Shown: in pieces, positions 4,938 through 28,696 of the stretch
Layout: every line of letters starts with the position of its first letter
Numbering within the stretch: the first letter of the stretch is position 1
Assembly (NCBI GenBank): GCA_032718475.1
Contig: JAUCBJ010001960.1
Location: forward strand, 1 to 40,253
Direction of reading: 5' to 3'
Origin: Nemertoderma westbladi
Taxonomy: Eukaryota; Animalia; Xenacoelomorpha
Length of the DNA stretch: 40,253 nt
The notes under the pieces: model-generated
The model's input: the letters and a program-made list of their open reading frames with translations, nothing else
Databases searched by the model: none
Told to the model about the DNA's origin: nothing
Made by a program: the position numbers and the translations under genes

Positions 4938-7240
4938 CGGTAGGCTCGCAAGCCTTCCTTTCTTCATCTCGCGCTCCTATTCCTTGGCTGAACGGGCTTG
5001 TCCACGCCCTCTAATACGATTGGGTGGTGGTCGGGATCGAACTGGACTCGGACTTCGGTGTCGAGCTGTCGGTGGTTCTAAAACGCTAGGAAAGGGGACG
5101 ACGGGAGTTTCGCACATCCGTCGTGCACTCAGTCCTCTAAATCCTCGTCCAATTCCAATTGTTGGCTTAACATCGGATCGAGTCTCCACAACGCTGGGAG
5201 GAAGTCGAAAGGGTGGGACTGTTCCGTCCGCTGACACCTCGCTCTCTGACGTCGTCTGAATTCTAATGGGTTCCGGCAAAGCGTATCCTGTCCCTCCGCG
5301 TGGTTCTCTAGCGAGGGAAACCGTGCCCCGAGTCATCCGGATTTGCGACTTCGATGTCGTCCTCTCGGCGACATTTACTACCTTCTTAATCTCTTATCCG
5401 CCCTTCTGGGCTCTAAGTATACGAAGTTGCGAAATGAAATGAATGTTACAACTACAATGCACCCCAATGAAAACCCTCCATATTATTGCAAGGTGCACCC
5501 TGACCACCAATATCCAGGTGCACCCCAATATTAAGATAATACTTTCCTTGTTTTTTTCTAATAATAATATATTCTACATTTATGAAAACACCTGATAATA
5601 TATTTAATTAAACAGCAGACGATTATGTGATGAATATTATATTTGCTATTTATATACCATAACATGAAATATAAATGGGTACTTTTATATTCGGCTATAG
5701 CAATTGTAGTTTCACTAAAATCTGAAATTACATTATCATTTTAAAGTTTTTGCTTGAAACGGGTATCTGAATTAATGTGATAAAAATATAAATTATAAAT
5801 AATTATTAATATAAAGAGCTGCACTACAATAGAGCAAATAAAGATATCTTTATTTTCTACAGTTGGTCAATATAGGAAATAAATATAATATGTATCTAAT
5901 AACAAGATTTTCATTCATATTTAGTATCATAGGGCTATAATTAAGTTAAGGGCTATATTAATAAGAATGATTAGTTTTACTACAGTGTACTGATTTAGTT
6001 AAGATATCTTTGAAATATATTTTAATTATATATCACTGATTATTAATATAATACATGCAGCATGAGTATAATTTTAATTAATTTTAATGTTTATTACAAA
6101 AACATCAAAAATATTACCAGTACCACAGACCTGGTTATGTGAAAGCATACAGTGACATCCTGGTCACAATAATATTACTGCACTATATGAAAGTAGAATG
6201 CTCAGCAAAATTAGAAAATAAAAGGAAAGTTATAGTAATAAAAAACAATACTTTAATTACTATGCAATCTACATTACTTATTCTTTATTTTAATTATGAT
6301 GATATAGGATTTATACAGAACAATTTATTATAATAGTAATGTAATAAGTAAAATATATTTTCTATAATACGTATGTGATTTTTGACCTAACGCTAATTTT
6401 TGAACCAAATGTTGATTTTTTTGCCGTCAGTCCAATTGACTGACGACTCATTCAAGGTGAAAAAGTTGTCAGTCAAAATGACTGATGACTCGTTTAGGAT
6501 TGCAGAGTTCTTGTGAGGAATTGTACATACTGTGTACTATTGTAAACAACATTCAAGATGTTCATTGGAATTCTAAATATCTGTCGGCAGCAAGCTTTAT
6601 TAAAATGAGAGAAAGCTCTTCATATTTAAATATACCACTACGATGAATTTAACGTATATTTTTTTAATGCAAAATATTGTTTCATTGTTTGATTTTGTTT
6701 GTTTGTAAAGTAAAGTTATGCAGAGGAAATTTATAATTTTGGGTTTTCCAACTCTATGTTTTCCAAATCTTCTCTGGTCAGACCATGATAGCCGAAACAT
6801 CGGATTGGAAACATATTAACTTTCAGCCAATTTGGTCCAAGCCAATGCCTTCTAGTCACCCACTCTAATTACTTTTCAAATTGATCATCATTGGTAAAAA
6901 TGTGATTTGTTGCAAGTGTCTTGGTTCATGAGCAAGAAGATGGTTTTCGATTTCAAAAATATAGCTTCGACTTTCACTTGTTTCTCCGAAAAAAATGGGA
7001 CAAAAAGGACATTTTGCCCAAAATCAACGCACATTTAGGCTACTTTTATATTTGGACAGTTTTATTGGATTATCTAAAAATTCCAGAATATACTTCATTC
7101 ATTCATATGTTAAAGGTACATTGAGCACCACTTGCTACTACAGTTTGTTATACTTTCAATATTTTAAGTTCATTATAAACACCGTCTGCAATTCACTGAG
7201 AATTTGCTTGTCTACTCTGTTTGAGTATGATGATGATAAT

Positions 7241-7776
7241 ATGATCTCTCTAGATGAAATAATGTCACAAGAATATCCGTTTTATCTATTCACTGGACTG
7301 CCTACGTTTTCAAACTACCGAATTAAAAGACTGATTGGTATAGAAATGCGAAACATATTTAATAATGACGAGAACAACTATGATGTAAAACAGGTTGATT
7401 CAAGAACTGGCCATCCATACTTCTTGGTGAGGGAAGTTTACAAACTTCAAGAATCCCACCTTATTTATGCTGCCATTGCTGAAAACGTGGATGTCAGTGA
7501 TCTGGCCCTGTATGTATCCGGCTGTAAAGTCGCGTTCCTCCGATTACCAACAGGAATGGACATATTCGAATACTATCATACATGGCTTCTGCTGAGACGA
7601 AATAATGGCGGAGTACATATCATGGAAATGGCCAAGGAACCATGGGATGACATAGAAGGGAATGTTCTCGTCACCATAAACAATACTGAAGAAGTGCATA
7701 ACCGTAGACCTGGAACAATTGCTATGGATACAAGTTATATGAAACATACACAAGGCATCAACATGGCCAAAACTAT
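7241..7776 (+). pseudogene. 5' part of an H-box/NC (LRAT/PLAAT-like) protein gene interrupted by BEL element 1
   Basis: Part of ORF 6995-7834. It contains the H-box-like GCKVAFLR...YYHTWLLL...VHIME, and the frame continues exactly across the TSD at 19099. The start Met at 7241 is a guess. Confidence 0.6.
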
Positions 7777-8359
7777 TGTGAGCGGATTCAATTCCGCCCA
7801 CCACCCCATAAAGTTGGGAAGTGGCACCTTTTAGCAATATTGGGGATACGAGGTTAATCCCCAATTAACCTCGTATCACACACCCAGTAAATGGGGACAA
7901 CAAACCCCGAAGGGCCACACACAAAAGGAGGTCAGAGGTTAAACCTCTGGGAGGGGAAAGTAACAGCAGTGAGGGGGAAACACTCCCACAGAGTTGAGGG
8001 CGAGAATTAGGTTATTGGCCAATGAGAGCCAAGAAACGCATCCGCTAGGTACAATGGCCATAAGTAATGTAGCTAATCAATATATATATTACCGGTCAGT
8101 GCCCAACATTCAGTTATCTCAGTTGTTCAGGGCAGTAAGGTGACACTTTATACCGTCACCGCCATCACCAATTATTATTCTGTATTACTGATTTACCGAC
8201 ACTGTGCTATCTGTATTACATTATCATTGTATACTATATATTACCATCAAAGTTTATCAACAATATCGGAACAACAAACTCTTCCTTTTCCAATCACACG
8301 GTGCGGCCCTGACGCGTAAATAAACCAAAACTCGGTCGGGATCCTCTGATCCCGTCACA
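7777..8359 (+). repeat. 5' LTR of element 1 (583 bp)
   Basis: TG...CA ends, CCAAT ~8019, TATA-like run ~8080-8090, TCAGT Inr-like motifs ~8096-8124, AATAAA 8319-8324. Matches 18511-19098. Confidence 0.95.
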
Positions 8360-8423
8360 GTATAAAGTTACCCACTGACCCTAAAGAAACTGTGACTGCC
8401 AGCCACTATTCAGAAAGTCAAAG

Positions 8424-10099
8424 ATGAGCGAACACCGAGACTTAGAGGGAGAGACGACACCGCCGCGGACCCCAGACGATACGAACGAAACGATCCGCGA
8501 GGCCGCGACGCGACGGTATCGACCCGCAACACTGGACTCACCGGAGAGGAATGATCCGGTAGCCCAGGCGGAGGGCGGCCGTCTACCACAACGAGGGACG
8601 AGTGAGTGGAGAGAAGGGAGAGACGAGTCGACGCACGATGGCGCATGTCGCCGGCCAGCCACAGGCCGAGGGTGACGGACGGCCCACCGGAACGGCGATG
8701 GTGGGGCCGCTGGTACGATGCCGAACGCGGAGAGAAAGATGAGATGTCGGCGACGAGGACGCCGGGGTCAGCGACCGGCTCCGGCGGGCTTACAACGCCA
8801 CAAAGAAACAGCTGAGGGAAGCCAAGGAAGGAGCAAAGGTGGACCAGGTGAAACTAGAGAAGCGACTAGGTGAGTCGAACAAACATTTTAAATACCTAGT
8901 TCACTTCGGGCAGGGAGAACTAGCCAGTGAGAGAGCGAGGTGGGTCGCCACCGAACTATTTGAACTGTGGCGATCCGGGATTATGGAGCCCCAAATTGTG
9001 TACATAGGGCTGTATTTAGTGGATGCCAGGGGTATTAAGTTAGTGGGTTGGGCAGACCCACACGAGGGCGAATCCGAGATGAACCCTGAGGATTCGGTCT
9101 CGTCGGTTAGCGAAAATCCCAGAAAGCGGGGGAAAGTTAGCAGGACGGAGAGGCGACGGGAGTCCGTCGCGACCGTCAAGTTCGCTACATCCTCCACAAA
9201 GTAAGAAGGGTGTTAGAAATAGATCTGGCGTGCCAGTTGGATATGGTGGCGCTAGACCAAAAGGAGTTAGAGAGACAGTTGGAAGAGGGGAGTGCATTGT
9301 TGGAAAGAGAGAGGGATCTGGCGAGAGAGAATAGAGAGAGGGCCGAGAGGGTCGCGAGAAACTTCAGAGTGTATGAGGAGATATAAATGAGGGAAGGAAA
9401 GGAGTGGGAAGAGCGAGAGGCAAAAGAGATGAGTGAACGTAAAGATCGAGAGGCGAAAGAGGCGAGTGAACGTAAAGAGTGTGAGGCGAGAGGGGCGACC
9501 GAGCGAAAAGAGCGTGAGGCGAGACGACTTGAGAGGATTGCGAGAGAGGCGGAATTGGCCGAGCAGAGTCTGCGAGAAGATAGGGAGAGAGAGAGAACGG
9601 GAAAGCGTGTGCGAGATGATATGCATGCCCGGCTGAGGGGATGCAATATCAGGCCAAACAAAAGCGCCGACTGGAACTGGCGCAGTTGGGGCTGTCAGAA
9701 AGTGAGGCTGGCTCGGGTAGTATTTATGGGGAGCCAGAAGTTATGGAAACGTTTGTTAATACCCCACTTACAGGAACCGGACGACAGACCCAAGACTGGT
9801 GTAACCATATGGGCGGGGGGGGGGGGGGGGTGGTAATAATAATACGTTAGAGAACGTTAATATTAATAGTACCGTAGTGGATAACCCTAATCAAACTTTT
9901 ATTGCAGGAAATAATATTTTGCCCGATAATAGTCATTTAAATCCGAACGACCCTAATCTAAATGTAGAAAATAATTCAAATAACCCAGATTCGAATTTAC
10001 AAAATAATTCAAATAATTTAAATATGCAAAATAATCTAAATAATAATCTTAATTCAAACGAACACTCCAACCAAAATATATATTGGAAAACAATATTAA
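8424..10099 (+). pseudogene. gag: Gag N-terminal region of element 1 (frameshifted; E/R-rich coiled-coil, poly-Gly and Asn-rich parts)
   Basis: ORFs 8424, 8839, 9387, 9641 and 9877 are colinear with element 2 ORFs at 22263-23900. The region resumes after the piggyBac insertion at 12068-12355. Confidence 0.75.
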
Positions 10100-12063
10100 C
10101 CCTTTCCGGCCGACTGTATATTTTTGTATACACTGAATTTATTTCACTACGAATTGCATAATTTTAACTAATTATAGTTGGTTTCATCCAATTGAGGCAC
10201 TATCACACTTCCTTTACTTATAAATTACCGATTCTGATTGGATAATTGTAGTAGAAGGCTTCAATGAACGATTTTAGATGCCGTGTTTTCAGGTATTGAC
10301 ATGATGACTACCTGGCATAGGAAAGATGGTTATTTAAATGCTTTGGCAAAGCGATATTGAGAATTTTGATTGGGTATTCCAAAGATGGATTGTCCAATGA
10401 GATAATAATACTTCCAGGATAAACTTTACAGTACAGGTAGGCTGGTAGTGTTATTGATAAACCACTGTATACATTTGTCTACGTTAGGTTTATAAAGTTG
10501 GGGAGTAGAAGTGGTGCAGCCACAGTTGTGGAGTAGATGTGGTGCAGCACCGTTGGGGAGTAGATGTGATTCAGCCACCGTTTGTGTGATGTGGTGCTTC
10601 CACCATTGGGGTGTGTGTAGGCCTAGATGTGGTGCAGCCACCATGGGGAGTAGATGTTGACCATAGGATAGTAGAGGTGATGCAGCCACCATTGTGGATA
10701 GATGTGGTGCAGTCGCCATTGGAGAGTAGATGTGGAACAGCCTCCATTGGGGAGTAGATGTGGCGTAGCCACCATAGGGGTGTAGATGTTGACCATTGGG
10801 CCTTGGGAGTAGATGTGATGCAGCCACTATTGGGGAGTAGATGTGGTACATCCACCACCGTAGGGGTGTAGATATGGTGCAGCCACCATTGGAGAGTAAA
10901 TCTGGCGCACCCACCATTGGGGAGTAGATGTGGTGCAGCCACCATTGGGGAGTAAATCTGGCGCACCCATCATTTGGGAGTAGATGTGGTGCAGCCACCA
11001 TTGATGAGTAGATGTGGTGCAGCCACCATTGGGGAGTAGATGTGGTGCAGCCACCATTGATGAGTAGATGTGGTGCAGCCACCATTAGGGAGTAGATGCT
11101 GACCATTGATGAGTAGATGTGGTGCAGCCACCATAGTGGAGTAGATGTTAACCATTGGGCCTTGGTAGTAGATGTGATTCAGCCACCATTGGGGAGTAGA
11201 TGTGGTGCAGCCACCATTGATGAGTAGATGTGGTGCAGCCACCATTGGGGAGTAGATGCTGACCATTGATGAGTAGATGTGGTGCAGCCACCATAGTGGA
11301 GTAGATGCTGAGCATTGATGAGTCGATGTGGTGTAGCCACCATATGGAGTAAATGTTGACCATTGGGGAGTAGATGTGGTGTAGCCACCATATGGAGTAG
11401 ATGTTAACCATTGGGCCATGGGAGTAGATATGATTCAGCCACCATTGGGGATTAGATGTGGTGCAGCCACCGTTGGGGAGTAGATGTAGTACACCCACAG
11501 TAAACAGGCAGGGCAGATAGACATACAAACAGTTGAAAAAAGTTAGTCGAAACTGTTTTTTTCAAACTTGAACAAAACTGACAGAAAAAAACATTCACTG
11601 TATAATTCTTCATTTTAAGTTTTTTGTCGCACTGTGTTGCTTTTAAACAACGTGTGTTGTGAAAACACACAAAATTATAAAATTTTGGCATTTTGGCAAA
11701 TTTCAAAGTATTGACAGCTTTTCATTCCGAAAAAACATAATTTAAATTTTTTTCATTAAAATTGCCTGCTCGTTGCATGTTTTGTTTATTCTCTATATTA
11801 TATATATATATATAGAATATACTTACTATACGATGTATGTATGTAAGTAAGTACGTACAATCTAGAGTTCGTATACAAAAGTATACATTGGGAACATGTT
11901 TCATATACCTAACGTATACTTTTGTATACAATAAAAAAAACAACATTGGAAATAATTTTTTGAAAATTTTTTCATCGAAAATTATTATTTGGTGTATAAT
12001 TAACCCATTAACAAGACCAACCAATTTTTTTTCCTAAATTAAATTAATTCAGGCCGGAAAGGG
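10100..12063. mobile_element. Non-autonomous piggyBac-type DNA transposon nested in element 1 gag
   Basis: TTAA (10096-10099), then CCCTTTCCGGCC ... GGCCGGAAAGGG, then TTAA (12064-12067): a perfect 12-bp TIR with TTAA TSD. No transposase ORF, and the insertion is absent from element 2. Confidence 0.92.
10495..11495. repeat. 28-29 bp minisatellite (GAGTAGATGTGGTGCAGCCACCATTGGG/GAT) inside the piggyBac element
   Basis: Periodicity is visible directly and generates the repetitive minus-strand ORFs at 10426-11528. Confidence 0.93.
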
Positions 12064-12372
12064 TTAATGGTGCTATTAATGTAAACGCGGCTAATGTAGG
12101 TGGTCCGACCAGCGGGGGCCTGGTAGGCCACAGAGCTAGTGTGCAGGGAGTAGCGGGGGTGAGAGACCCCGAGCGGGGCCTGGTAGGCCACGTAGTTAGT
12201 ACGCAGGGAGTAGGGGGGTTGAGTCAACCCGACGCGAGCCTGCCAGGCAACGCAGTGATAGAGGGAGAGGCGGGGGTGAATAGACCCAGCCGTAGTGGAG
12301 TTAGTGCGTCGACTAGAGAGGGGTGTAGAAGTGAAGTAAGAGATAGTGAAGTGATCGAATTTAAATGGTTCT

Positions 12373-14164
12373 ACGGGTGGACGCTGAGCGGCCCAATCAG
12401 GAGTAAGATACCATTTAGGATGTCGGAGAGATCAGGATGCATGTTCGCGGGAACTATGCGAGAAATGGGAGATGAGGGAGCGGAGGAGCGGATGAAATGC
12501 GACGAGGGGCGGTATACCATAGGAATGGTATGGAAGCTACCGAAGCTACCGTTACCCGACAATAAAGGGATGGTACTCATGAGGCTTCGTAAGTTGAAGC
12601 AGATGCTAAAACGGAGCCCCGAGAAGAATGAGTACATTCACAAAACAATCAGAAAGTATGTCGAGAAAGGGGTTACCGGTCGACGAACTGAACACGGACA
12701 GGACCTAATACCTACCACTTCACGTGGCTCTAGATCCGAAGAAAGGTAAACTGCCGATGGTAGTTGACGCATCGGCTAAGACCAACGGCAAATGCCTAAA
12801 CGATTATCTGCTAGAGGGTCCCAATATCTACAACTCAGGGATCGAGGTCCTACTGAGATTCAGAAATGGGAGGCACGCCTTCACCTGTGACATTGAAGGC
12901 ATGTTCAATCAAGTCCGTGTGACGGAGGAGGATAGTGACAGCCAGCGCTTTCTATGGTACAACGGCGACGAGGAACCGTCGACAATACCGATGTACAAGA
13001 TGGTGGTGCAGAATATGGGGGCCAAGTCGTCCTCATTTACGACGACTGTGGCTGTGAGGGACACAGTAGAGGGGAAAGAAGAGAGATACAGTGCCAAAGC
13101 CGTCGATATGATTCGACGCGGCTTCTGTGTAGATGACGGGATGGAGTCTTGAAACACGGTTAATGAACTACTGGATACAGGGCGCGAGGTTCACGACATC
13201 CTGAAAGGATCCGGGTTTAACCTGACCAAGTTCCAGTCCAGCTCGGAAGAGTTTATGAGAGCCATAGAGGACAGGAGGCCAGAGTCGACCATGGATAATC
13301 CCACGACAGCCAAGGGACAGGACATGGCGAACAAGGACAGGACATGGCACAGGACATGGTTCCAGCAGAAGGCGTTAGGGATTGTGTGGAACCGAGAGAC
13401 AGACGAGTTCGAGTACCAGCTGAGCCAGGAGGGCGCGGACATCCACACAAAGAGGGGCTATGTATTGTACATAGCAAGGGGCGGAGAACGAGTTGGCAGA
13501 GGCCTTGGACATCCTGGAAGGGGAGGAAGTCAGGGCAGCCATGAGGAAATGACAGGTGAAGTGGGAGAGAAGGACGCCGTATGCTCCGCATTCTCTAGGA
13601 TGCGTCGAGAGACTCGTGGGTAGTTCCAAGCATCTGATGACGAAGTTGATGAACATCCACATGGTGACAGAAGATGTACTAAGGACGGTACTAGCTAAGT
13701 GTGAGGGTATCATTGATAGCAGACCGCTATACCCAGAAAATGATGACCCAGAATCATTAGATGTGCTGACACCCAGTCACTTTCTAATGGAGAGGCCAGC
13801 GACCATCGACATGCGGGGTGTAGACCCAGACGATATACACTCCCGACAAAGTTGGAAAGTCGCTAAGGCAATAAGCGCGGAATACTGGAGGAGGTGGGTC
13901 GAGGAATATCTACCCACACTTCATAGGAGGAGCAAGTGGAGAAATACCACTAGGAAGTTGAAGAAGGGTGATCTGGTGATCATCACGGACGATACCATCA
14001 TCAACAACCAATGGAGATTGGCAAGAGTAGTGGACACTTACTCCGACGAGGACAGAAGAGTCTGATCGGTAGAAGTGCAGATAGGTGGTAAGATAGGAGC
14101 GAAAGATAGGAAAACCTATAGGAGGGCTGTAGGAAAGTGCTGCCTACTAAAGGACGCACCGTAG
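12373..14164 (+). pseudogene. pol: BEL/Pao pol remnant of element 1 (RT, fragment after RT, integrase C-terminal half)
   Basis: Motifs seen: VVDASAK..CLNDYLLEGP, FTCDIEGMFNQV, FCVDD (degenerate YVDD), ALGIVWN, GCVERLV, IIDSRPL, LTPSHFL, YWRRWVEEYLPTLHRRSKW, WRLARVV. Several deletions, frameshifts and stops. Confidence 0.93.
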
Positions 14165-14339
14165 AGTTTAGTCGTCCAAGTGTTGGACTGAGGGGGGTGG
14201 GATTGAGGGCGAGACGCCCTTCCCACACACAAATATAAAAATATAAAAAAAAAAAATAATTAAAATAATAGAGAAAGAGAGGAAGAGAAAGGAAAGTAAT
14301 AGTACATAGTAGGTATGTAGTAAGTAAGTAGGCAGATAG

Positions 14340-14890
14340 AAGTTAGTAAGAGTTAGTATTAGCAGTAAGAGGGTATGTAGTACCGTTAGTTAGTTAGTTA
14401 GTTAGTAGTAAGAGGGTACGTAGTACCGTTAGTTAGTTAGTTAGTTAGTAGTAAGAGGGTACGTAGTACCGTTAGTTGGAGAGTTAGTTAGTAGTAAGAG
14501 GGTACGTAGTACCGTTAGTAGGAGAGTTAGTGGAGTTAGTTAGTTAGTAAGAGGGTACATAATACCGGTAGTAAGAGTTAGAGGAGTTAGTAAGAGGGTA
14601 CGTAGTACCGGTAGTAAGAGTTAGAGGAGTTAGTAAGAGGGTACGTAGTACCGGTAGTAAGAGTTAGTGGAGTTAGTAAGAGGGTACGTAGTACCGTTAG
14701 TAGTAAGAGTTAGTAGAGAAGTTAGTAAGAGGGTACGTAGTACCGTTAGTAGTAAGAGTTAGTAGAGAAGTTAGTAAGAGGGTACGTATAGTACCGTTAG
14801 TAGTAAGAGTTAGCGGTAGAAGGGTATATAGTATACAGTAAGAGTTAGTAAGAGTTGGTAGAAATTAGTCAGTAGAGTTAGTAGTGAGTA
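14340..14890 (+). repeat. Imperfect ~43-49 bp tandem array with core AGTAAGAGGGTACGTAGTACC between pol and ORF3
   Basis: About 11 copies of the core, separated by GTTA/TTAG repeats. Confidence 0.9.
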
Positions 14891-15279
14891 GCGAGAGGGG
14901 GGCATGTGGGTACAGCTGGACAGATCGTGTAGGCCACACGAGATATACTGCTGTACTGCACAAGCCCATAGAGTAGGCCAGAATATGGATTAGAATAGAA
15001 ATAATCAATTAGTAAACTCATAGCACAGTCATAGAATTAAAATAAATATTAGAAATTAGAAATTAGACAAATTATGGTAACAGTAAGAAAAATATTCCAG
15101 AACATAATTAAAGGTAAATAAACGGACAGAATTACGAATAGGAAAATTAGGCAATAAACTAACATTCAGCAAGAGATAGGGCATTATCGGACTGCATAAA
15201 CCATCCTAACTTCATCACTCATCTGTATTGCACCTTAGCAAGGCACCACCTTATAGGTGAGCGATTGGGAGAGTTCGAA

Positions 15280-17884
15280 ATGGCGGAGAAACTTGTTCGA
15301 AAGAGAAAGGCGGAGTTGGGAGGAAAGGAGATACTGGTGGATTTCACCGAGAGGCATCCGGAAGAGAAGACGAGGGGATACTACGAGCGGTTAGAGAGGG
15401 GTCATAAAGCGCGAGCGCTGCAGGACCATTTCAGGGAGGTGCACGAACAGCGGCTGGTCGGGACCTACGGGACACCGTTGCTAGACAACGCAATCTTCGA
15501 GCATTTCCACTATGTGGTGAAGGGAGACGAGGCGAAGTTCGGGATACCGAAGTATCCAAAGGAACAACTGAGAAAGGACTGGAAGAGGTTCGTAGAGTCC
15601 GTCAGCAGGGGAGGATACATGGTCCTAGACGATGAGGGGACCATGGAGGACGAGGAAGGTTCGAGGAGAGGCTTGGCGGGGTCGGCCAGAACCATACTCC
15701 TGCATTTGGCCGCGCCAAATGGGGACATTTTCCTATTCGACCTGGGAACGTATGGGAAGGAGAACGGGCCGAAGTTGAACCGGTTGCCAAAGGCGGTACA
15801 AACCCTAGTAAGAGAGAAGTCAACGATAAAGGTGGGATTGGCGATCCGCGACGATGCGGAGAGAATCATCGGTCCGGACACCCCCAACCTCCTGGACATG
15901 CAGACGGTCTACATGGCTATGACAGCGCCAGACGGGTTGGGACTAGTAGAGAACGCAGGCCATTCTGGAACGGTGGTGATGGGCCAGCTAATGGGGCTCG
16001 TATGTCACAAACCAATGGACTGGAGTAGATTCAGAGAGGAGTATGGAGCGGAATTGGCAAACTCGCTGAAGTGGGGAGCGAGACCGGGGAAACAAGAGGT
16101 GTATCAATTCCGGAGATGAGCGATAAAGGTATATCAGAAGCGATATATCCTGCAGGAGGACTTGATAATGATAGGTTTGCTAAACCTATTCATGACCGTG
16201 GTTATCGAGAGAGAACCAACGGCATTCCTGTTATCGGGATCACCCCTGAACTACAGAAGAGCCTTCAAAACGGCTTTCGAGGGTCTGGTAGACCACCCGG
16301 GGCTGAAGGGCGAGTCGGTATATTATAACTGCCGATATCTAGTAGACGGGGAGGTGGATACGCCATATCAGAGGTGGGAGCAGCTAGAGGCGGATAGACG
16401 AGAGGCGAAGCGATTGGAAGAAATCGCTAGGCGAGACAGGAGGGAGGCAGAAGAAAGGGAGGAGGAAGCAAGAAGAGAGAGCTATGGATTTGAGGAACAG
16501 GCGGCCTTAGACGAGCTACACTGGACATCAGGGAGTTCGGGCGAGTCTCTAGGGCGAGAATTGGGGTGGACGGTGGGATCACCGAAACAGTCGACATCGG
16601 GAATGCAGGCGACGCCCATACCAGCGGGCGCCGAGGGCGATTTCACGCGGAGGTGGCCAGGGGAATTGGAAGGATGGAGAGTCACTGGCGAGAGCCAAGG
16701 TAGGAAGGGTCACAGTGGATCCACCGGGATACCGGGATTGGAGCCACTCACAGAGGAGGACGAGGATGACGACGAGTTCGGAGAGATGCCACCCATTGGG
16801 AGAATCGGCCACTCGGACATGGACTGGGTTGGCGGGAGGGTGGTGATGGCCAGCGGGGCGAGGGCCTTCTGGGATTGACCCGGCAAGCGGGCCTGGGTGC
16901 ATGAGGAGCCGGCGATGGATTTCGCGGGGAGCACCATCAGGTTGGGCAAGCAACCGGGGACGGCACCACGGGTAGTATTCGGAGAGACGATGCCTGGGCG
17001 GGGCGAGGAGATATACGTGGACAGGGACGCTAACGTCCAGAAGTTCGCTTACCAGCGACTCCACAGACCGAGGAGATCGCTTGGGACGAAAGACAACATG
17101 GGGCGGGAGGCATTGGTACTCGGCTGCGATTACTGCGGGAGGCAAACTCACCAGGAAAGGAGCTGCTTGTACCGATTCCAGAAAGGGACTAGTTGTCTCT
17201 ACTGCCGCGAGTTGAGCCACAGGATGGGGGCGTGTCCACGGTTGCACAACCGGTGTTCTAAGTGCAACTTCCGGGGGCACTACGGACGCCAGTGCGACTG
17301 GATGGACGACGAGGAGAAGTTTAGGATTTTCGAGGAGTGGGCCAATGTCGGCGCCATGACCCGACAGCGGATGAAGGCCCAGGAATTCCGGTGGGGCTTC
17401 TTTAATATCAACCAGGAGGCCCACCTGGAGATCATTAAACGGAGACTTCCGTTTACCTATCAGGAGGTGTCATCCGCGGCGTCGTATGCCGGAGTGATAA
17501 ATACGAAGAGGTATTTGGACAGGTGGACACCACAGAACCGAGGAGAGTTCAGAGATTTTCTTGGCGGAGCATGTGCCGCGGGCAATGAAAGTGATCCTAT
17601 GGGACGCCACTAGGGGGAAACAACAGGGCCATTCGGAGGGGCCACCCGCGAAGCGATACCGGGAGCTGATAACACCAGCGCCCAAGGAGTCGACGACGGG
17701 AATCAGTAGAGAGGTGACGGCAAGGGTCAGGAGTCTGAAAGGAGATAAGACCAAGGGAGCGGCAGCGGCCAGGAAACGACCGAGGGAGGAGGACGACAGA
17801 GGGAAGGAGTTGAGATGGTTCCCAAAGTCGGGTGGAACGAACTATAACTTGGGTGTGGAGATGCCTGGAAGGCGCCACATGTGA
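15280..17884 (+). pseudogene. ORF3 of element 1: DEDDy-type 3'-5' exonuclease, acidic/charged linker and three CCHC zinc knuckles (~870 codons reconstructed)
   Basis: ORFs 15265, 16162 and 16897 share one frame, broken only by TGA at 16117 and 16876. A +1 T at ~17557 relative to element 2 joins ORF 17561. Exonuclease motifs: VLDDEG, LLHLA..IFLFDL, LP..VQTLV..STIKVGLAIRDDAERI, LLDMQ, QKRYILQED. Knuckles: CDYCGRQTHQERSC, CLYCRELSHRMGAC, CSKCNFRGHYGRQC. Confidence 0.8.
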
Positions 17885-18472
17885 AGTAATACGAACTCCT
17901 AAGTGCAAATTTAATTAAAAGTGCAATTAGTATGTACGTATGTAGTAATCATTAGTTTAGTCAAATAGAAAATACAATCAAAGTAAGTACTATAGTCATA
18001 TAACCTTTTCCAATTAGCTACTGGAACTGGGGACCAATTGACTATGACAGGACGGGGCATTGGACGACTTCACACTTCTTGAGTGCGACGGCACAGGAGG
18101 GGAGGGTGAGGCTCGTCAGGAGTGAGTGGGTTAGTTAGAGGTTGAGTATAGAACGTGTGGAGGGAAGGCGAGTGCAATTCAAGTGTGGGGGGGGGAGGAG
18201 TAAGAGAGTTAGAGTGGAGGAAAGTTAGAGTCAGTTAGAGCGGAGTTAGAGTGGAGAGAGTAGTGAGGAAGCAAAATTGTGTGAGAAATCCACAATCGTC
18301 CCGACACGGGACGCCAGATGTCTTGGTGCAAGGTAGACGAAGTTGCACCAAGAGAGGGTAGCAATATCATACCCATAGGGAGCGGCCTGGAAAGCCAGCT
18401 TCGAGAAAAGAACTCCACCTCACACCCGATAGTACATCGGGATCCAGCGGAATTGAAGCGCACTTGTTGGTG

Positions 18473-18510
18473 ATGCTATCTTCTCACCGGGAAGATAGCA
18501 TGGGGGGGAG
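18473..18510 (+). promoter_or_regulatory. 11-bp-stem hairpin followed by the polypurine tract of element 1
   Basis: ATGCTATCTTC-TCACCGG-GAAGATAGCAT, then GGGGGGGAG abutting the 3' LTR. The same arrangement occurs at 29352-29389. Confidence 0.88.
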
Positions 18511-19098
18511 TGTGAGCGGATTCAATTCCGCCCACCACCCCATAAAGTTGGGAAGTGGCACCTTTTAGCAATATTGGGGATACGAGGTTAATCCCCAATT
18601 AACCTTGTATCACACACCCAGTAAACGGGGACAACAAACCCCGAAGGGCCACACACAAAGGGAGGTCAGAGGTTAAACCTCTGGGAGGGGAAAGTAACAG
18701 CAGTGGGGGGGGGGGGGGACACTCCCACAGAGTTGAGGGCGAGAATTAGGTTATTGGCCAATGAGAGCCAAGAAACGCATCCGCTAGGTACAATGGCCAT
18801 AAGTAATGTAGCTAATCAATATATATATTACCGGTCAGTGCCCAACATTCAGTTATCTCAGTTGATCAGGGCAGTAAGGTGACACTTTATACCGTCACTG
18901 CCGTCACCAATTATTATTCTGTATTACTGATTTACCGACACTGTGCTATCTGTATTACATTATCATTGTATACTATATATTACCATCAAAGTTTATCAAC
19001 AATATCGGAACAACAAACCCTTCCTTTTCCAATCACACGGTGTGGCCCTGACGCGTAAATAAACCAAAACTCGGTCGGGATCCTCTGATCCCGTCACA
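18511..19098 (+). repeat. 3' LTR of element 1 (588 bp)
   Basis: Differs from the 5' LTR by about 8 substitutions (counted by eye) and an expanded G run. Confidence 0.95.
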
Positions 19099-19218
19099 AC
19101 TATTTATCGATATTCTAGAATTATGGGAGTCAGCATTGAGTATCATCCCGTCCAACTCAATTGCGACCACCTAGCAACATATCTAGCAACAGAAACGCCG
19201 AATAATAACGCCAAGTGA
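19099..19218 (+). pseudogene. 3' part of the H-box/NC (LRAT-like) gene
   Basis: The in-frame continuation is TIYRYSRIMGVSIEYHPVQLNCDHLATYLATETPNNNAK*. It resembles the LRAT-family Y.L...NCEHFA motif. Confidence 0.65.
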
Positions 19219-20080
19219 TGGTACATTCAAAATCGTTGCCACCAGCTATCTCTCAGAACGTCCTTCAAGAATTGGTGTCAAGACTAACCTTGCTGGTTCG
19301 TGTGCAGAGTGGGAACTGGCTGGTGCGCTGGCGGTGATTGAAGCACATGGTCGGCTCACTATCGAGCATTTCAGTGCATTCTCTGTAACATCACAGAATT
19401 TCGAGGATAGTTCGGATGCCACATCAGATAAGAACAGGATGGTACGTATTTTGTCTACCGCATTCGCCACAATGATTAATGATAAGGATTTCCAGAACTG
19501 GCTGGAATGTCTGTAAAAGAATACAAGTCTCCAAATGCCATCCCCTCAGAAACATTACTTTGAGATAACTAGAGTATATGCTGTAGTTCTGGTTGTTATG
19601 TTAGCATGGCAACCAAGGCCAAACTCAGTTATATAGTAAATAGGCTGAATATCTCAACCTTGAGACAAGGGGAGCTGGAGCAAGATACCTGGATTATTAT
19701 TCAATACAATTGATTTCATTCATTCATGTGTGTTTAATCAGTTTAACCAATTAGATTGAGATGCCGGACTACCTGTCAATCCCATATGTCACAAATCTCT
19801 CAATGCACAACGTGCATGTAGCAGGACCCCCAGTTGGCCCTACCGAACGTTGTTGGTACCTTTATCGGCCGTCATAAAATTATATCGAATTAAAATACCA
19901 AAAGTATGCCATACCCATGCACCGAAAACCTGAACAAAGTCGGAAGTGAGGCATTAGAAAGTGCTAAAGGAGTCAATGGTATGCAGCAGATGTGTGAAAA
20001 TTGTAATGGTATCACCAAGCCATGCAAGACACACAACACAAAGACGCCTTTAAAGTAATAATAAAAATAAAGCACACCCG

Positions 20081-20260: not shown

Positions 20261-20394
20261 AATACAAACTATTTATTAACTTTACTTTAACAGTTCGTTA
20301 CAACGTAACATATCTTTAATGTGTGTATTAATGTGTATGTAAATATGTATAGCATTAAACTTGGCTATTGTCGGACTCTGCCTTTATTAAACAT

Positions 20395-21128
20395 GTAGCC
20401 ACTGGCGGAAAAATTACAACAAAATGTAGCCACGGGTGGAACTATAAGAACAAAAGTAGCCACGGGTGGAACTATAAGAACAAAATCTATCCACAGGCGG
20501 AACTATAAGAACAAAATGTAGCCACGGGCGGAACTATAAGAACAAAATGTAGCCACGGGCGGAACTATAAGAACAAAATGTAGCCATGGGCGGAACTATA
20601 AGAACAAAATCTATCCATGGGCGGAACTATAAGAACAAAACGTAGCCACGGGCGGACATATAAGAACAAAATGAACCCACGGGCGGAACTATAAGAACAA
20701 AATCTATCCACGGGCGTAACTATAAGAACAAAATGTAGCCATGGGCGGAACTATAAGAACAAAATGTAGCCACGGGCGGAACTATAAGAACAAAATGTAG
20801 CCATGGGCGGAACTATAAGAACAAAATCTAGCCACGGGTGGAACTATAAGAACAAAATGTAGCAACGGGTGGAACTATAAGAACAAAATCTAGCCACGGG
20901 CGGAACTATAAGAACAAAATCTACCCACGGGCGGAACTATAAGAACAAAATCTAGCCACGGGCGGAGCTATAAGAACAAAATGTAGCCACGGGCTGAACT
21001 ATAAGAACAAAATGTAGCCATGGGCGGAACTATAAGAACAAAATCTAGCCACGGGCGGAACTATAAGAACAAAATCTAGCCACGGGCGGAACTATAAGAA
21101 CAAAATGTAGCCACGGGCGAAACTTTCC
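20395..21128. repeat. 31-bp tandem array (GTAGCCACGGGCGGAACTATAAGAACAAAAT), ~23 copies, probably a transposon terminal array
   Basis: Periodicity is visible directly (20518, 20549). It ends sharply at ...GAAACTTTCC, downstream of the transposase-like fragment. Confidence 0.92.
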
Positions 21129-21558
21129 TATTGCTATTACGGCTAAGGCTATTACTTTGCGGAATTTTGCAATTAGTAATTTTTAAATTATGTATGGGAG
21201 GATGATATCAATAGATGAATTTGGATATGGACTGGATATGGTTATTCCTCTAAAGGTTAAGGGGGGGGGGGGGGGGGGGGTAGTCGGATTTGGCAACCTT
21301 TTGGTAATGTTTAAAATACACCATAGTATATCATTGGATACTAGGACATATATATATATTCTGAAAGGTAATTGGACGGGCTTTCCATTTCTGTGGTCAC
21401 ACATCTAAAATACTCGCTTCTGATTGGCTAATAGCCAATTAAACGAAATTTTGATTGGTCCGTTCTTAAAATGTATCTCCTCCTACAATTTTGAGTATTT
21501 TGGTCTGAAAATTGGTGAGTATGTGCACTGACTATCCCTTTACAGAATCCTTAGAGGA

Positions 21559-22126
21559 CTTTAGTGTATTCAATTCCGCTAACCAGGCCCACACAAAGTT
21601 GGTTTTAAGCAATATTGGGAGCACGAGGTTGATTACCAATCGACCTCGTGTCACCCCAATAAGCGGGGACAACAGGCCCCAAGGGAACACACACAGCGGG
21701 GGTCAGAGGTTACACCTCCGGGAGGGAGAGAGAGACGGCAGCGGGGGGGAAGCACTCCCAGGGAGATGGGAGGGTGAGAAGTGAGTTATTAGCCAATGGG
21801 GGGAAGGCATCGGCTGATTAGTGTAATGCGGCCAACCGGTGCAATATATTACCAGTATCCGTGTTATTCATTCACTCATTAGCTAGTCAGTTCAGTTAGG
21901 GTAGGACGGCAACTTTATTACCGTTCAGCCGTTTATTCATTCACGTTGTCAGTATACTGCAATTACCAACTGCATTCACTATAACTGTGCTTATACTTTA
22001 TACCATTTATATTATATACATATCGAACGATTAACAACAGGAACTCTAATAAACTCTTTTCACACGGCGGGACGCGTAAATAAATCTAACCGGATAAACC
22101 GGGATCCTCTGTCTGATCCCATCACA
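21559..22126 (+). repeat. 5' LTR of element 2 (starts CT instead of TG)
   Basis: Aligns without gaps to 29390-29957, with about 12 differences by eye. Confidence 0.93.
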
Positions 22127-22262
22127 GTAATAAAGTCCAGCTGCCCGAAACTGAACCACAGTAATAAACTCTAGCTGCCCCAACAGTAATAAAGACACCG
22201 AACGTAAAGCGCTGAGTCGAACAGGAGAGACGACACCGCCGCGGACCCCGGATGGCGACCTA

Positions 22263-25200
22263 ATGATCTGCGAGGCCGCGACGCGACGGTACAGACCCAC
22301 GATGCCGGACCCATCGATAACGGGCGATCCGGCAACCAAAGATGAGGGGGGCCGTCTACAACCAGAAGACGAGTCGAGAGGAGGGAGAGATGAGTTGGGA
22401 GAGGAGAGAGATGAGTCGACACACAGCGGCGGTCGACGTGCTGATGTCGCCGGCCAGCCACAGGCCGAGGGCGACGGACGGCCCACTGGAACGGCGACGG
22501 TGGGGCCGCCGATACGACGCCGGACCCGGAGGGATAAAGGAGATGTCGGCGACGAGGACGTCGGGGTCAGCGACCAGCTCCGACGAGCCTACGCCGCGAC
22601 CCAGAAGCAGTTGAGAGAGGCCAAAGGAGGGGCGAAGATAGACGAGGTGAAGTTGAGGAAACGATTAGGCGAGTCGAACAGACACTTTGATTACTTAATG
22701 CGTTTTGGACAGGGAGAACTAGCTGACGAGAGAGCGAGAGGGGTTGCCAGCGAACTGTTCGAACTATGGGAGTATAGGGGTATGGAACCTAGCGTAGTGT
22801 ATGTAGGGCCATACTTAGTCGATGCATGGGGAGTAAAATTGGTGGTTTGGAGGAGACCGCAGGAGAGCGAATCCGAGGTTAACCCCGAGGATTCGGTCTT
22901 GTCGGTAGGGGAAAATCCAGGGAGGCGGGGTAAAGTTAGTGGGACGGGAAGGCGACGGGAGTCCGTCGCGACCGATAAGTCTGCTACATCCTCCGCAAAA
23001 GAAAGAGAAAAAGTGCGGGAAATAGATCTGGCATGCTAGCTCAATCTGGCGGCGCTAGACCAGAGAGAACTAGAGAGACAGTTAGAGGAAGGGAGTGCGT
23101 TATTAGAGAAGGAGAAAGAACTGGTTAGAGTGAACAGAGAGAGGGCCGAGAAGGCCGCGAGAAGCTTTAAGGAGTGCGAGGAAATAGGGAGGATAGAAAG
23201 GAAGGAGCAAGAAGAGCGCGAGGCGAGAGAGCAGAATAGGCGTGAAGAGCGTGAGGCGAGAGACCAGAGCGAGCGAAAAGAGCGTGAGGCGAGAGAACAG
23301 AGCGAGCGAAAAGAGCGCGAGGTGAGACGACTGGAGAGAGTTGCGAGAGGTGGAATTAGCCGACCAGAGTGCGCGGGAGGATCGGGAAAGAGAGGCAAAG
23401 GGGAAGCATGTGCGGGATGATTTGCATGCCCGCCTAAAGGGGCTTATTCAATATCAAGCCAAACAGAAACGCAGACTGGAATTAGCGCAGATGGGATTGT
23501 CAGAGAGCGAGACTGGCTCGAGTATTTACGAGGAGCCAAGGGCTGTGGAAACGTTTATTGGTACCCCACTTACAGGGACCACACGACAGACCCAAGACTG
23601 GTGTGACCGTACGGGCGGGGGGGGGGGGGGGGGGGGGTAATAATACAGTAGATAACGTTAATATTAATAGTACCGTATTGGATAATTCTAACCAAACTTT
23701 CATTGCAGGAAATATTTTACCTAGTAGTAGTAATTTAAATTTACGAGTAATTACGAGTACGAATACGAGTAATTCGAATAATAATGCCAATTTAAATAAT
23801 CCGAATAATCCTAATTCAAATAATTAAAATATGAATCTGCAAAATAATTCAAATAATCTTATTTCGGACGAACAAAATAATTCCGTTTCTAATTTAGGCG
23901 TGCAAAATAATTTAATTGATTTGGAGGATTTAATTGATTTAACGGGCGATACTAGTAATGGTGCTATTAATATAAACGCGGCGGGCACAGACAGCCCGAC
24001 AAACGAGGGCCTGGTAGGCCACATAGTTGGTAGGCAGGAAATGACGGGGTTGAGTCAACCCGATGAGGGCCTGGTAGGCCACGTAGTCAGTAGGCAGGAG
24101 GTGGCGCGGTTAAGTCAATCCAATGAGGGCCTGGTAGGCCACGTAGTTAGTAGGCAGGAAGTAGAGGGCCTGGTAGGCCACACAGTAGCAGAGAGAGGGG
24201 CGGGGGTGAATAGACCCAGCCGCAGTAGGGTTAGTGTGTCGACTAGAGAGGGGTGTAGTAGTGAAGTGAGAGATAGTGAAGTAATAGGTGGCGAGCGAGG
24301 GGGGGCTGTAGGAGCCCCACAACGAGAGATTAGCGGCGAGCGGGGGGGGGGGGGGGGGGCAAAGAGTGTCGCACAAGTGTCAGCGGATAATGCGCGGGGC
24401 GAATTAGGTGAACCGCAGCACCCGGCGACGGAGAGTAATAGGGGGATTACGAGTATCCCCAGCGGCGTGCGATCGAGCAGAGAGAAGCAGATTGACGTCG
24501 CGAGAGGGCGAGCGACGAGGCGTCGAGCCCAATCAGAAGAGGGAAGAAGAACAGTGGAGTTTAACCGGGAGGTCGACGAGAGATCTCACGACCGGGGATA
24601 CTGCACTACAGAGAGAAGAAAGGAAGAGGGTAGAAGAAGTGTCGCCGCGAACGACAGAAGGGCGAGGACGGATAGCGAGCCGTCGGTAGTAGAGATGGAG
24701 ACGGAGAGTCAGTGGGGTCGAACTTCGGGAGATTGCCGTCGCCCCGGAGGAACGCGACCTGACGAGGCGTATTGAGCGCAGAGAGAGGGGTACAGGATGT
24801 ACTGGCACGAGGACGAGAGCAGTAGAGGGGGTCGAAGAGAAACTTCCCGACGGGATATACCTACCGATCGAGAATACGGTAGCCGCGGGGAGGATTATTC
24901 GAGAAGGATAAACTTTGATCCCGAGCGACACATACAGACTGCAGGACATACTATAGGCCTTACTGCACATACCATAGGCCATGCTGGGAGAGATAATGTA
25001 GGCGATAGGATAGCGCGAACGACGGGATTAAACCCGGAAGTCGCGGAGTACATACCAGCAGGTAGGCCAGAAGTGGATAGGCCTATACAGGTACCAGCAC
25101 AGAATGCAAGGACATAACATATACCCAGGGGAGGGGAGACTTATTGCGGATAGGTGTATGGGCCCCAATATATTAACATCAACCCCAGTACCAAACATAC

Positions 25201-25785
25201 CGGTGGGGGGGGGGGGGGGACAGGGTGACATTCCCCCATCACAATATCAACAATATACCCCAATAGGAGTAACAACATCGAACCCCTTGGATGAGAATAG
25301 ATCGTGCGACACAGAAATATGGACCCCCTATATATATATATATAATACCCCCTATGATATATCCAAGTCAGAGGAAAGCGACAGACAGGACGAACGGACC
25401 ACACCCAACGGGAGAACCTATACAGCATCCATCGAACCCATTGGAAGCGCAAGCGATGGGGATGGCCACGTTAATCGATGCATTAAAGACAGGGATTGAG
25501 TTACCACCCGTGGAACCATTCAAATTCGATGGAAGTAGGCCGGAAGAATACCTACAGTTTCGGCGTATGTATAGTAATGAAATATTAACAAAGAATTTGA
25601 CGCAGGCGGAGTGCCTAAAGTATCTACAAGTGTATACAGGAGGCCCAGCATACGACATCGTGAGGCAATACCAGAGCATTGAGGGCGGCTTCACGACGGC
25701 ATGGTGGGCGTTAGACAGGGAATACGGGCACCCGGCCAAGATCATCCAGCAGACCCTGAGAGGTATAACATCGGGTGGCCTATAG
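22263..25785 (+). pseudogene. gag: Gag of element 2 (frameshifted), including the BEL gag core
   Basis: Colinear with element 1 gag. ORF 25291 has PFKFDG...YLQF...LKYLQVYTGGPAYDIV...AWWALDREYGHP, typical of BEL/Pao gag (DUF1759-like), and is in frame with ORF 25831 across one TAG. Confidence 0.85.
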
Positions 25786-25830
25786 GATAACCCCGTTAGC
25801 ATAAAGACATTCGCTAACAAAGTCGAGAAG

Positions 25831-27770
25831 GTGCTAATCGTACTAAAGACGCTGGACGCGCCATACGAACTCAACGCGTCTAACAACATCGCTACGATAG
25901 CGCAGGCACTACCGATTTGGCTGCGCAATAAGTGGAGAAAAATCGCTTTCACCACTCGAGATAGGAAGGGTGAGGAACCGGGTTTAGAAGAGATGTCGAG
26001 CTTCTTAAACTATGAAGCTGAACTTATAACGGACCCAGTCTATAGCGAGGATAGCCTGGGAAAGGGACCAAAGACCGATTACCACAGGCCGAAACCAGAG
26101 CACAACGCGTCAAACGCATTGCCAAAGCTCAGACAGTCACTGCCGTATGCAGCAACGCAGGGGACTACCAGTCCACAAGTAGCCGCGGGTAAGACCACAT
26201 CATGGAGCGGACAGGGGAAAAATAACAACACAAATAAACATAACCCCAGCACGCCCAGTAGGCCAAACCCAAACAATAAGAATAGTAGGGACTTTGGTAC
26301 AAATATAAGTGCGGTATGCAACGTACTTTATAAGGATGGCTACACCCCAAAGAGCAAATGCCAACTACATACAAATGCACTTCATCAGACCATGAACTGC
26401 AGGTATTGGCAAGCGCTACCCAGGGAAGATCAGGTAGAATACGCGAGAAGAAATGAAATCTGCTCGCGATGTGTGATGAGTGGACATAGAGCTAACCAAT
26501 GCAAAGAAACGCCAATTAAGTTCAGTCAGAGTAAAGGACAGACAATGACAACGAGCACCGTAGTGGCAAGGAAGAGAGGAACGGTACTATTAGGAGTAGT
26601 ACCAGTAAGGATAATCGGGGAAGGCAATCGATCAGTAACCACACTGATGCTGGTCGACAGTGGTGCAGCCTTCACCTTAGTTGAGGATTGGGTGGCCGAA
26701 GAGATAGGATTGAGAACGAGGCCAAGTAGAATGGCGGTAACAACCATCTCCAGCAAAGATGAGGTTCTGGAGATGAGGACCGGACGGTGCGCGATAGCAG
26801 CGATAGCACCGGGATGCGACTATGGGGCGACCATCGACCCCATCCAGGTGATAGAGTCGATAAATATCAACGCCAGGCGGCCAACCAACATCGAAGTCGA
26901 ACAATACAGATTCCTGGACAGTATCGATTTCTCAATCCCAGAGGTGGATGTTAGGAAGGTATCCATCATAGTAGGAATGGACTGCCCGACGGCCCACGAG
27001 AGAATGCAAACAGTCTTCGGCGAAGACAGGCAGTGTGACCCGGTGGTGATATTAACACCATTCGGATGGACGCTGAGCGGCCCAATCAGGAGTAAGATAC
27101 CATTTAGGATGTCGGAGAGATCAGGATGCATGTTCGCGGGAACTATGCGAGAAATGGGAGATGAGGGAGCGGAGGAGCAGCTCAGGAGACTGCTCAGGCA
27201 GGATTTTGAGGGATTAAAGGAGACCGGGGTCGGAACCTCGGTGGAAGTTAAACAGGCTCTACAGAGTGTAAGGGAGTCGATGAAATGCGACGAGGGGTGG
27301 TATACCATAGGAATGGTATGGAAGCTACCGAAGCTACCGTTACCCGACAATAAAGGGATGGTACTCATGAGGCTTCGTAAGTTGAAGCAGACGCTAAAAC
27401 GGAGCCCCGAGAAGAATGAGTACATTCACAAAACAATCAGAAAGTATGTCGAGAAAGGATGGGCCGTGGAGTTACCGGTCAATGAACCAAGCACGGACAG
27501 GACCTATTACCTGCCACTCCACGTGGCTCTAGACCCGAAGAAAGGTAAACTCCGGATGGTAGTTGACGCATCGGCCAAGACCAACGGAAAATGCCTAAAC
27601 GATTATCTGCTGGAGGGTCCCAACATCTACAACTCAGGGATCGACGTCCTACTCAGATTCAGGAATGGTAAACACGCTTTCACCTGCGACATCGAAGGCA
27701 TGTTCAACCAAGTCCGTGTAACAAAATGGATAGTGACAGCCAGCGCTTCCTATGGTATGACGGCGATGAG
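25831..27770 (+). pseudogene. pol: Gag C-terminus, aspartic protease and N-terminal RT of element 2
   Basis: Knuckles CQLH...H....C and CSRCVMSGHRANQC; protease LVDSGA; TPFGWTLSG; YYLPLH, KLRMVVDASAK, LNDYLLEGP, CDIEGMFNQV. Homology to element 1 stops at ~27770. Confidence 0.93.
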
Positions 27771-28308: not shown

Positions 28309-28696
28309 CTACCAGGAAGTGGCGACGGCGGCATTGTATGCCGGAGTGATAAATACGCAGAGGTTTTTGGACAGGTGGACGCCACAGAACAGAGGAGAGT
28401 TCAGGGATTTCTTGGCGGAGCATGTGCCGCGGGTGATGAAAGTGATCCTATGGGACGCCACCAGGGGGAGACAACAGGGCCACTCGGAGGGGCCACCCGC
28501 GAAGCGATACTGGGAGCTAATAACACCAGCGCCCAAGGAGTCGACGACCGGGATTAGTAAAGAGGTGACAGCGAGGGTCAGGAGCCTGAAATCAGACAAG
28601 ACCAAAGGAGCGGCAGTGACCAGGAAACGACCCAGGGAGGAGGACGATAGAGGGAAAGAGTTGAGGTGGTTCCCAAAGGCAGGTGGAACGATCTAA
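28309..28696 (+). pseudogene. C-terminal remnant of ORF3 in element 2
   Basis: Clear homology to 17457-17840 (LDRWTPQNRGEFRDFLAEHVPR...ELRWFPK). Confidence 0.9.

Follow-up and report, generated by a model that had tools for sequence, protein, structure and literature searches.

Putative self-priming from the 5′ end of the RNA in two decayed BEL/Pao elements of Nemertoderma westbladi with an exonuclease-like third reading frame

Results

Complementarity between the primer-binding region and the element's own LTR

The stretch analyzed here, referred to as the window, comprises 40,253 nucleotides of contig JAUCBJ010001960.1 from Nemertoderma westbladi (assembly GCA_032718475.1, forward strand) and harbors two decayed long terminal repeat (LTR) retrotransposons, element 1 (7777-19098) and element 2 (~21558-29957). 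In both, the primer-binding site (PBS) directly after the 5′ LTR is complementary to a segment of the element's own LTR, termed the arm. In the reading that we favor, with a probability of roughly 55%, the arm primes reverse transcription from the 5′ end of the RNA after a predicted endonucleolytic cut, and the third open reading frame (ORF3) is probably a separate accessory gene. An earlier note on this DNA had coupled the two features, proposing that ORF3 encodes a 3′-5′ exonuclease that trims either terminal copy of the arm to the edge of the arm-PBS duplex.

In neither element was a TGG found within the first 8 nt after the 5′ LTR. The first 9 nt past the LTR of element 1 (8360-8368) are perfectly complementary to 8145-8153, and the first 10 nt past that of element 2 (22127-22136) to 21912-21921. 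The arms are placed alike, with 206 nt (element 1) and 205 nt (element 2) from arm end to LTR end, and 72 and 76 nt, respectively, from a TATA-like box to the arm end. Looser pairing continues over ~42-44 nt, as far as the predicted start site, and an LTR-wide pairing profile gave a single clear minimum at the arm. One inserted base distinguishes the two PBSs, and each arm tracks its own PBS by a compensating indel: the cognate arm/PBS runs comprise 9 and 10 pairs, whereas the crossed combinations break at position 4 after 3 pairs each. An exact terminal complement was obtained in 73/20000 (element 1) and 37/20000 (element 2) shuffled LTRs, and the 40-nt windowed duplexes (-32.5 and -33.4 kcal/mol) were equalled by 0/150 shuffles for each element. 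The perfect 9-10 bp part is A+U-rich (-7.4 and -8.3 kcal/mol) and the duplex is bulged beyond it; in the folded 5′ leader, the terminal pair probability was 0.25-0.55 for element 1 and 0.83-0.98 for element 2. The case for arm-PBS pairing is made by flush position, equal placement, and covariation taken together. With no TGG and an own-LTR complement flush with the LTR end in both elements, tRNA-independent self-priming, as put forward in the earlier note, is likely.

Alternatively, a host RNA (a tRNA fragment or another small RNA) would prime, and the arm-leader helix would be a packaging or regulatory structure. Half-tRNA priming without a TGG is known from copia lineages (excerpts of PMC6317226), and a perfect part of only 9-10 bp that is A+U-rich would suit such a primer. 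However, the PBS indel between the elements is matched by the LTR arm, a match that an invariant host primer would leave unaccounted for, and in both elements the LTR boundary is also the exact end of the helix; we consider host-RNA priming unlikely. ARAGORN identified no tRNA gene in the window, and thus no element-encoded tRNA-like primer. A primer formed at a splice junction was rejected: assuming a GT/GC..AG intron in the LTR did not lengthen the match starting at the first post-LTR base in either element.

Two observations concern the edges of the helix. Past the flush duplex of both elements, a C-A mismatch is followed by two further possible pairs (8154-8159 versus 8354-8359; 21922-21924 versus 22124-22126), which makes the duplex edge slightly ambiguous. 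In element 2 the LTR-end/PBS junction is present in three tandem copies within 22124-22197 (at 22124, 22158, and 22183). The second copy helps to pair the 5′ part of the arm in the predicted fold, and the repeats may stem from mis-priming or from an error in strand transfer.

Predicted R region and course of priming

From TATA-like and initiator (Inr)-like motifs, the terminally repeated (R) region of the RNA was predicted to be long in both elements; in element 2, with a TATA-like box at 21845, several Inr-like candidates leave the start uncertain. An AATAAA ~35 nt from the LTR end had been reported in the earlier note, which is correct for element 1 (35 nt) and not for element 2 (42 nt). The arm lies inside the predicted R and would thus be present at both RNA ends; its 3′ copy in element 1 was found where the note had placed it (Table 1). 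A stem right after the arm is predicted to close the R domain, with pair probabilities of 0.65-0.69 in element 1 (0.2 for the 5′ copy in one truncated fold) and 0.92-0.99 for a similar stem in element 2. In both 3′ copies the stem begins 0-1 nt past the arm at a pair probability of ~0.78.

In the favored mechanism, the first ~42-44 nt of the transcript would fold onto the PBS ~250 nt downstream during RNA synthesis. A cut at the helix junction 8153/8154 (21921/21922 in element 2) would then yield a 3′-OH paired to the first post-LTR base. The cutter would most likely be RNase H, by analogy with Tf1, where bases 1-11 of the RNA pair with the PBS and the enzyme cuts between bases 11 and 12 (excerpts of PMC7175516). 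Reverse transcriptase (RT) would copy the unique 5′ (U5) region and the remaining ~190 nt of R before jumping to the intact 3′ R, and the 3′ LTR copy would restore the arm. A long R would suit this route because RT copies U5 plus the rest of R, the front of R being spent as primer and the rest serving strand transfer. ORF3, with a nuclease domain and three zinc knuckles, would most likely degrade or trim other RNA, for example to counter host silencing or to clear unpackaged RNA.

Self-pairing in distant BEL loci

The comparative scan covered 10 loci, 9 of which are BEL-like, with RT identities to element 1 of 38-39% in the three compared. Left out of the comparison were L024, with a match of 12-21 residues only, and L017, L018, L020, L022, and L023, which lack the needed ends. 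No ORF3 match was found in any scanned locus. The post-integrase region is visible in L015, L019, and L021; in all three the integrase C-terminal motif lies 127-164 nt from the LTR and ORF3 is absent. A starting TGG was likewise absent from all three loci with a visible leader (L016, L019, and L021).

In L019, 14/15 leader bases (one G-U) are complementary to an arm located in the 3′ LTR of the same locus (22/3000 shuffles). The geometry is close to that of the window elements, with 79 nt from the TATA-like box to the arm end and 232 nt from the arm to the LTR end. Only 128 nt separate its integrase from the LTR, leaving no room for ORF3. In L016, 11 bases pair perfectly (3/20000 shuffles), and one double change, A-T to C-G, distinguishes the pairing of the two loci. 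BEL self-pairing can accordingly exist without ORF3, which does not imply that the window lineage makes no use of its ORF3 in priming. With pairing and no ORF3, though as one decayed contig only, L019 speaks against the proposed coupling.

Further features of these loci were observed. In L016 (69-96) and L019 (7508-7528) the arm can pair with adjoining upstream sequence to give a local hairpin, and in this ORF3-less family the hairpin is a possible switch that would hide the arm in the 3′ R copy. In L021, which has no ORF3, a leader that starts with GTA, is A-rich, and resembles the window PBS lies immediately after the LTR end (46-65); of the L021 LTR, only 55 + 54 nt are present, and the arm search was equalled by 52/200 shuffles. 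An insertion with inverted repeats lies within the integrase region of L019 (6693-7145).

ORF3 resembles DEDDy exonucleases

ORF3 is predicted to encode, in this order, a DEDDy-like exonuclease domain, a charged linker, and three CCHC knuckles (Table 1; residue numbers are those of the stop-to-stop frame). An unfiltered comparison with a profile built from 13 exonuclease domains of RNase D and Pol I type gave a match to residues 142-233 with 13.5 bits; this was the best-scoring stretch in the six frames of the window, and 0/2000 shuffles reached it (best 6.3). The Exo III motif reads Y-x3-E-D, where E332 takes the aligned position of the Asp and is followed by D333, and lies outside the stretch matched by the hidden Markov model. 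The nearest Atlas clusters were WRN-like (PF01612, score 0.87), which is a lead only, and in pairwise BLAST the match to E. coli RNase D reached no better than E 0.004. A single-sequence fold model had a predicted local distance difference test score (pLDDT) of 33.6, too low to use.

The exonuclease domain had no match in Pfam, NCBIfam, PHROG, or PDB at E 10 and was not recognized in plasmid and phage searches. Homologue searches identified no relative of ORF3 and, at E 1e-20, none of the protease-RT piece; viral contigs, including genome contigs, held no ORF3 or RT relatives, and metagenome contigs no ORF3 relatives. The aligned Exo I and Exo II motifs, the profile match, and the WRN-like lead support the earlier view of ORF3 as exonuclease-like, as a prediction for a gene broken by two stops.

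Is an exonuclease involved in priming?

The geometry of arm and AATAAA needs no exonuclease. The Tf2 self-primer is located in R (excerpts of PMC5341516) and so is also present at both RNA ends; in Sushi LTRs, AATAAA is significantly nearer to the LTR end than in most (excerpts of PMC3601003); and in Tf1 the cut is made by RNase H. A 3′-5′ exonuclease would be unable to free the 5′ arm, where no 3′ end exists before a cut. On the 3′ copy, the enzyme would have to remove the poly(A) together with 183-191 nt of R, some of it paired, which would leave only ~42 nt of R, all used as primer. Trimming would hardly halt at the edge of the arm duplex, as had been assumed: the R-closing stem is met first, and an enzyme stopping at the first duplex would stop ~150 nt early. 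Against such an early stop, the 3′ R stretch taken in full folds with no greater stability than its own shuffles. The objections above, together with L019, argue against coupling ORF3 to priming, and an exonuclease-matured primer is unlikely. We hold it to be rather improbable that these elements represent BEL/Pao members in which a ~42-nt self-primer replaces the tRNA and an own DEDDy-zinc-knuckle nuclease trims a short RNA derived from R precisely to the point where the LTR ends.

Three schemes that give ORF3 a role in reverse transcription were weighed. In the first, quite improbable one, ORF3 trims a short precursor back to the duplex edge and in this way finishes the primer. The precursor would derive from a rough cut past the arm, or from R-only RNA ended at the AATAAA of the 5′ LTR or from other LTR copies. 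A DEDDy-like domain joined to RNA-binding knuckles and a strong AATAAA in the 5′ LTR are consistent with this scheme, which would spare the 3′ R of the genome; in general terms, 3′-end processing of element RNA is proposed in excerpts of PMC5408684. In the second, self-priming proceeds as favored, and ORF3 acts later on DNA by trimming a mismatched 3′ tail, which would arise when plus-strand synthesis continues beyond the 9-10 perfectly paired nt and enters the bulged portion of the long primer. The duplex is indeed perfect over that length only and bulged after it, DEDDy enzymes can act on single-stranded DNA (excerpts of PMC5408684), and the nearest Atlas clusters, as a lead only, are WRN-like. 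However, the scheme is only inferred, and L019 has long imperfect pairing without ORF3; we rate it as very unlikely.

In the version of the earlier note, the 3′ R copy pairs with the PBS, and ORF3 digests the poly(A) plus ~190 nt of R as far as the duplex edge; this is improbable in the extreme. The 3′ copy does pair as strongly as its 5′ counterpart in element 1 (-31.7 kcal/mol for each) and almost as strongly in element 2 (-30.4 versus -32.6 kcal/mol for the 5′ copy), but the 5′ copy, ~250 nt from the PBS and made ~10 kb earlier, should occupy the PBS first, trimming would destroy the first strand transfer acceptor on that molecule, the R-closing stem would be met short of the arm (even if the whole stretch folds no better than shuffles), and L019 is a counter-example.

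Points weighing against self-priming from the 5′ arm

Several findings speak against the favored reading of 5′-arm priming with a separate ORF3. The start and poly(A) sites rest on prediction. Under looser chance controls the window duplexes were not clearly separated from chance: 25-nt duplexes compared with the whole LTR were equalled by 2/500 and 75/500 shuffles, and ungapped helices allowing G-U at an offset of 0-5 nt by 779/3000 and 294/3000. The 40-nt duplex controls in the family of L019 were modest (5, 10, and 106 of 200). L019 is one distant, decayed contig with an RT 38% identical, and its LTR end is uncertain by ~4 nt (a 4-nt spacer); the leader of L016, with 20 nt lost at the LTR end, folds as a local hairpin (probability 0.85). 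The predicted primer would be ~4 times as long as the 11 nt of Tf1, and the predicted fold is a rod with a junction, not the three-duplex 'pretzel' that excerpts of PMC10085805 describe for the Tf1 primer. In the window lineage, pairing and a present or former ORF3 occur together in 2/2 elements, which are not independent. Finally, the region for RNase H, the candidate cutter, is deleted from both elements.

Layout of the elements and their surroundings

By their proteins and the order gag-protease-RT-integrase, both elements are assigned to BEL/Pao (Belpaoviridae), as a variant and not a typical member. The domains recognized were a DUF1759 gag, an aspartyl protease, and a DUF5641 integrase tail; DUF1759 and DUF5641 are what we take to be BEL/Pao markers. 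The RT pieces share 36-43% identity with seven BEL-like loci. Within each element the LTRs are ~98% alike, with 572 matches, 11 mismatches, and 5 gap columns in element 1, which is flanked by the 5-bp target site duplication (TSD) ACTAT, and 557 matches, 10 mismatches, and 3 gap columns in element 2 (TSD AGAGG). A G-rich polypurine tract (PPT) abuts the 3′ LTR in both (Table 1).

Stops, frameshifts, and deletions break both elements. In element 1, most of gag/protease is missing upstream of the RT pieces, and ~1.6 kb is missing after them, where RNase H and the N-terminal part of the integrase are expected from the spacing in L021. Pieces of the broken 5′ coding region scanned against Pfam gave no match, and the following stretch that does not align to element 2 is likely a later insertion.

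Table 1 Coordinates of features in the window
Feature	Position	Strand	Remark
Element 1 5′ LTR	7777-8359	+	TGT...ACA ends; TSD copy 7772-7776 just upstream
TATA-like box, element 1	8081-8090	+	motif scan
Inr-like A, predicted transcription start, element 1	8112 or 8121	+	motif scan; 8112 is 31 nt past the TATA-like box
PBS-complementary arm, element 1 5′ copy	8111-8153	+	candidate self-primer; perfect terminal 9-mer 8145-8153
Predicted R domain with closing stem, element 1	8154-8314	+	right after the arm; 8154-8158 pairs with 8310-8314
AATAAA, element 1 5′ LTR	8319-8324	+	35 nt before LTR end 8359
Predicted U5 hairpin beside PBS	8337-8354	+	kept in element 2
Primer-binding region, element 1	8360-8398	+	no TGG; flush with LTR end
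Broken 5′ coding region, element 1	8424-9942	+	77% identity to element 2
Stretch without element 2 alignment, element 1	9943-12064		holds 28-bp tandem array 10473-11498
BEL/Pao RT pieces, element 1	12709-13450	+	in-frame stop inside
Integrase C-terminal piece, element 1	13553-14162	+	DUF5641 (PF18701, E 4.7e-20)
ORF3, one frame	15163-17613	+	in-frame stops 16117-16119 and 16876-16878
Possible splice acceptor, ORF3	15169/15170	+	read by eye
ORF3 exonuclease motifs	15625-16161	+	Exo I D156/E158, Exo II D231, Exo III Y328
Three CX2CX4HX4C knuckles, ORF3	17125-17295	+	
PPT, G-rich, element 1	18497-18510	+	abuts 3′ LTR
Element 1 3′ LTR	18511-19098	+	TSD copy 19099-19103 just downstream
Arm, element 1 3′ copy	~18850-18892	+	terminal 9-mer 18884-18892
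AATAAA, element 1 3′ LTR	19058-19063	+	would end the RNA
Element 2 5′ LTR	~21558-22126	+	5′ tip decayed
Arm, element 2 5′ copy	~21882-21921	+	terminal 10-mer 21912-21921
AATAAA, element 2 5′ LTR	22079-22084	+	42 nt before LTR end 22126
Primer-binding region, element 2	22127-22197	+	10 perfect pairs, then two more partial LTR-end/PBS junction copies
gag (DUF1759), protease, RT N-part, element 2	25273-27772	+	
ORF3 remnant, element 2	28303-28462	+	3′ end only
Element 2 3′ LTR	29390-29957	+	
Arm terminal 10-mer, element 2 3′ LTR	29743-29752	+	
AATAAA, element 2 3′ LTR	29910	+	would end the RNA

Between the integrase and ORF3 of element 1 lies a purine-rich tandem array with 43-53-bp units (14316-14813). 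In element 2, an A+T-rich stretch (27773-28302) has taken the place of the remaining pol and of the larger part of ORF3. Element 1 interrupts an open frame of ~270 codons (6965-7776) that apparently resumes past the 3′ TSD (19104-19516); the frame had no Pfam match and is a candidate host gene or other mobile gene. Two separate 31-bp tandem arrays (1-514 and 20328-21247) flank the elements, and an endonuclease-like frame at 38953-39882 (Exo_endo_phos, E 0.03) is probably the start of a long interspersed nuclear element.

Discussion

Self-priming has been described for the Tf1/sushi group and predicted for plant Tcn1 and TAR (excerpts of PMC6317226, PMC4600332, and PMC10085805). As in that group, the PBS of the window elements complements the element's own 5′ RNA end, the primer lies in the predicted R, and a U5 stem is predicted beside the PBS; as in Sushi, AATAAA is near the LTR end. 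Unlike Tf1/sushi, which are Ty3/gypsy chromoviruses, the window elements carry BEL-type domains; they would thus work like Tf1 without being members of its group. They differ from Tf1 further in a predicted primer of ~42-44 nt with 9-10 perfect terminal pairs versus 11 nt, a length that depends on the predicted start, in the lack of a predicted pretzel fold, and in the presence of the exonuclease-like ORF3.

[quoted passage not shown] In line with this profile are LTR lengths within 0.2-1.2 kb, the gag-protease-RT-integrase order, DUF1759 and DUF5641, and the PPT; unlike it, the window elements have no TGG PBS, and their ORF3 is exonuclease-like. The literature searched, which did not extend to Repbase and subscription papers, contained no self-primed BEL/Pao element and no exonuclease ORF3 in BEL/Pao, and term searches of three BEL papers (PMC3118150, PMC554778, and PMC6238403) gave no mention of a PBS or primer. 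That the PBS is self-complementary in two BEL lineages only distantly related to each other suggests an origin, or an old presence, of self-priming in a third superfamily of LTR elements, where the self-primer would be longer than that of Tf1. A primer matured by an exonuclease would, if true, represent a new priming route, but the evidence points away from it; one trimmed by ORF3 would imply an element-encoded primer-maturing enzyme.

In comparison with WRN-exo/RNase D domains (PF01612), Exo I and Exo II of ORF3 align, whereas Exo III is irregular and the gene is broken. According to excerpts of PMC5408684, a DEDDy ORF3 is present in the bdelloid rotifer elements Juno and Vesta, was gained at least twice, and is shared with Athena elements; a term search of the paper gave no mention of PBS, tRNA, or priming for it. 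Set side by side by description, the window elements resemble Juno/Vesta and Athena/Terminons in having a putative RNase D-like 3′-5′ exonuclease as third ORF after pol. Juno and Vesta belong to rotifer lineages of retrovirus-like type, and their motif is DEED, whereas the carrier in the window is BEL/Pao, and its ORF3 has an Exo II Asp and an Exo III Y-x3-E-D followed by three CCHC knuckles. An exonuclease-knuckle ORF3 in BEL/Pao would extend the observation made in rotifers to another superfamily.

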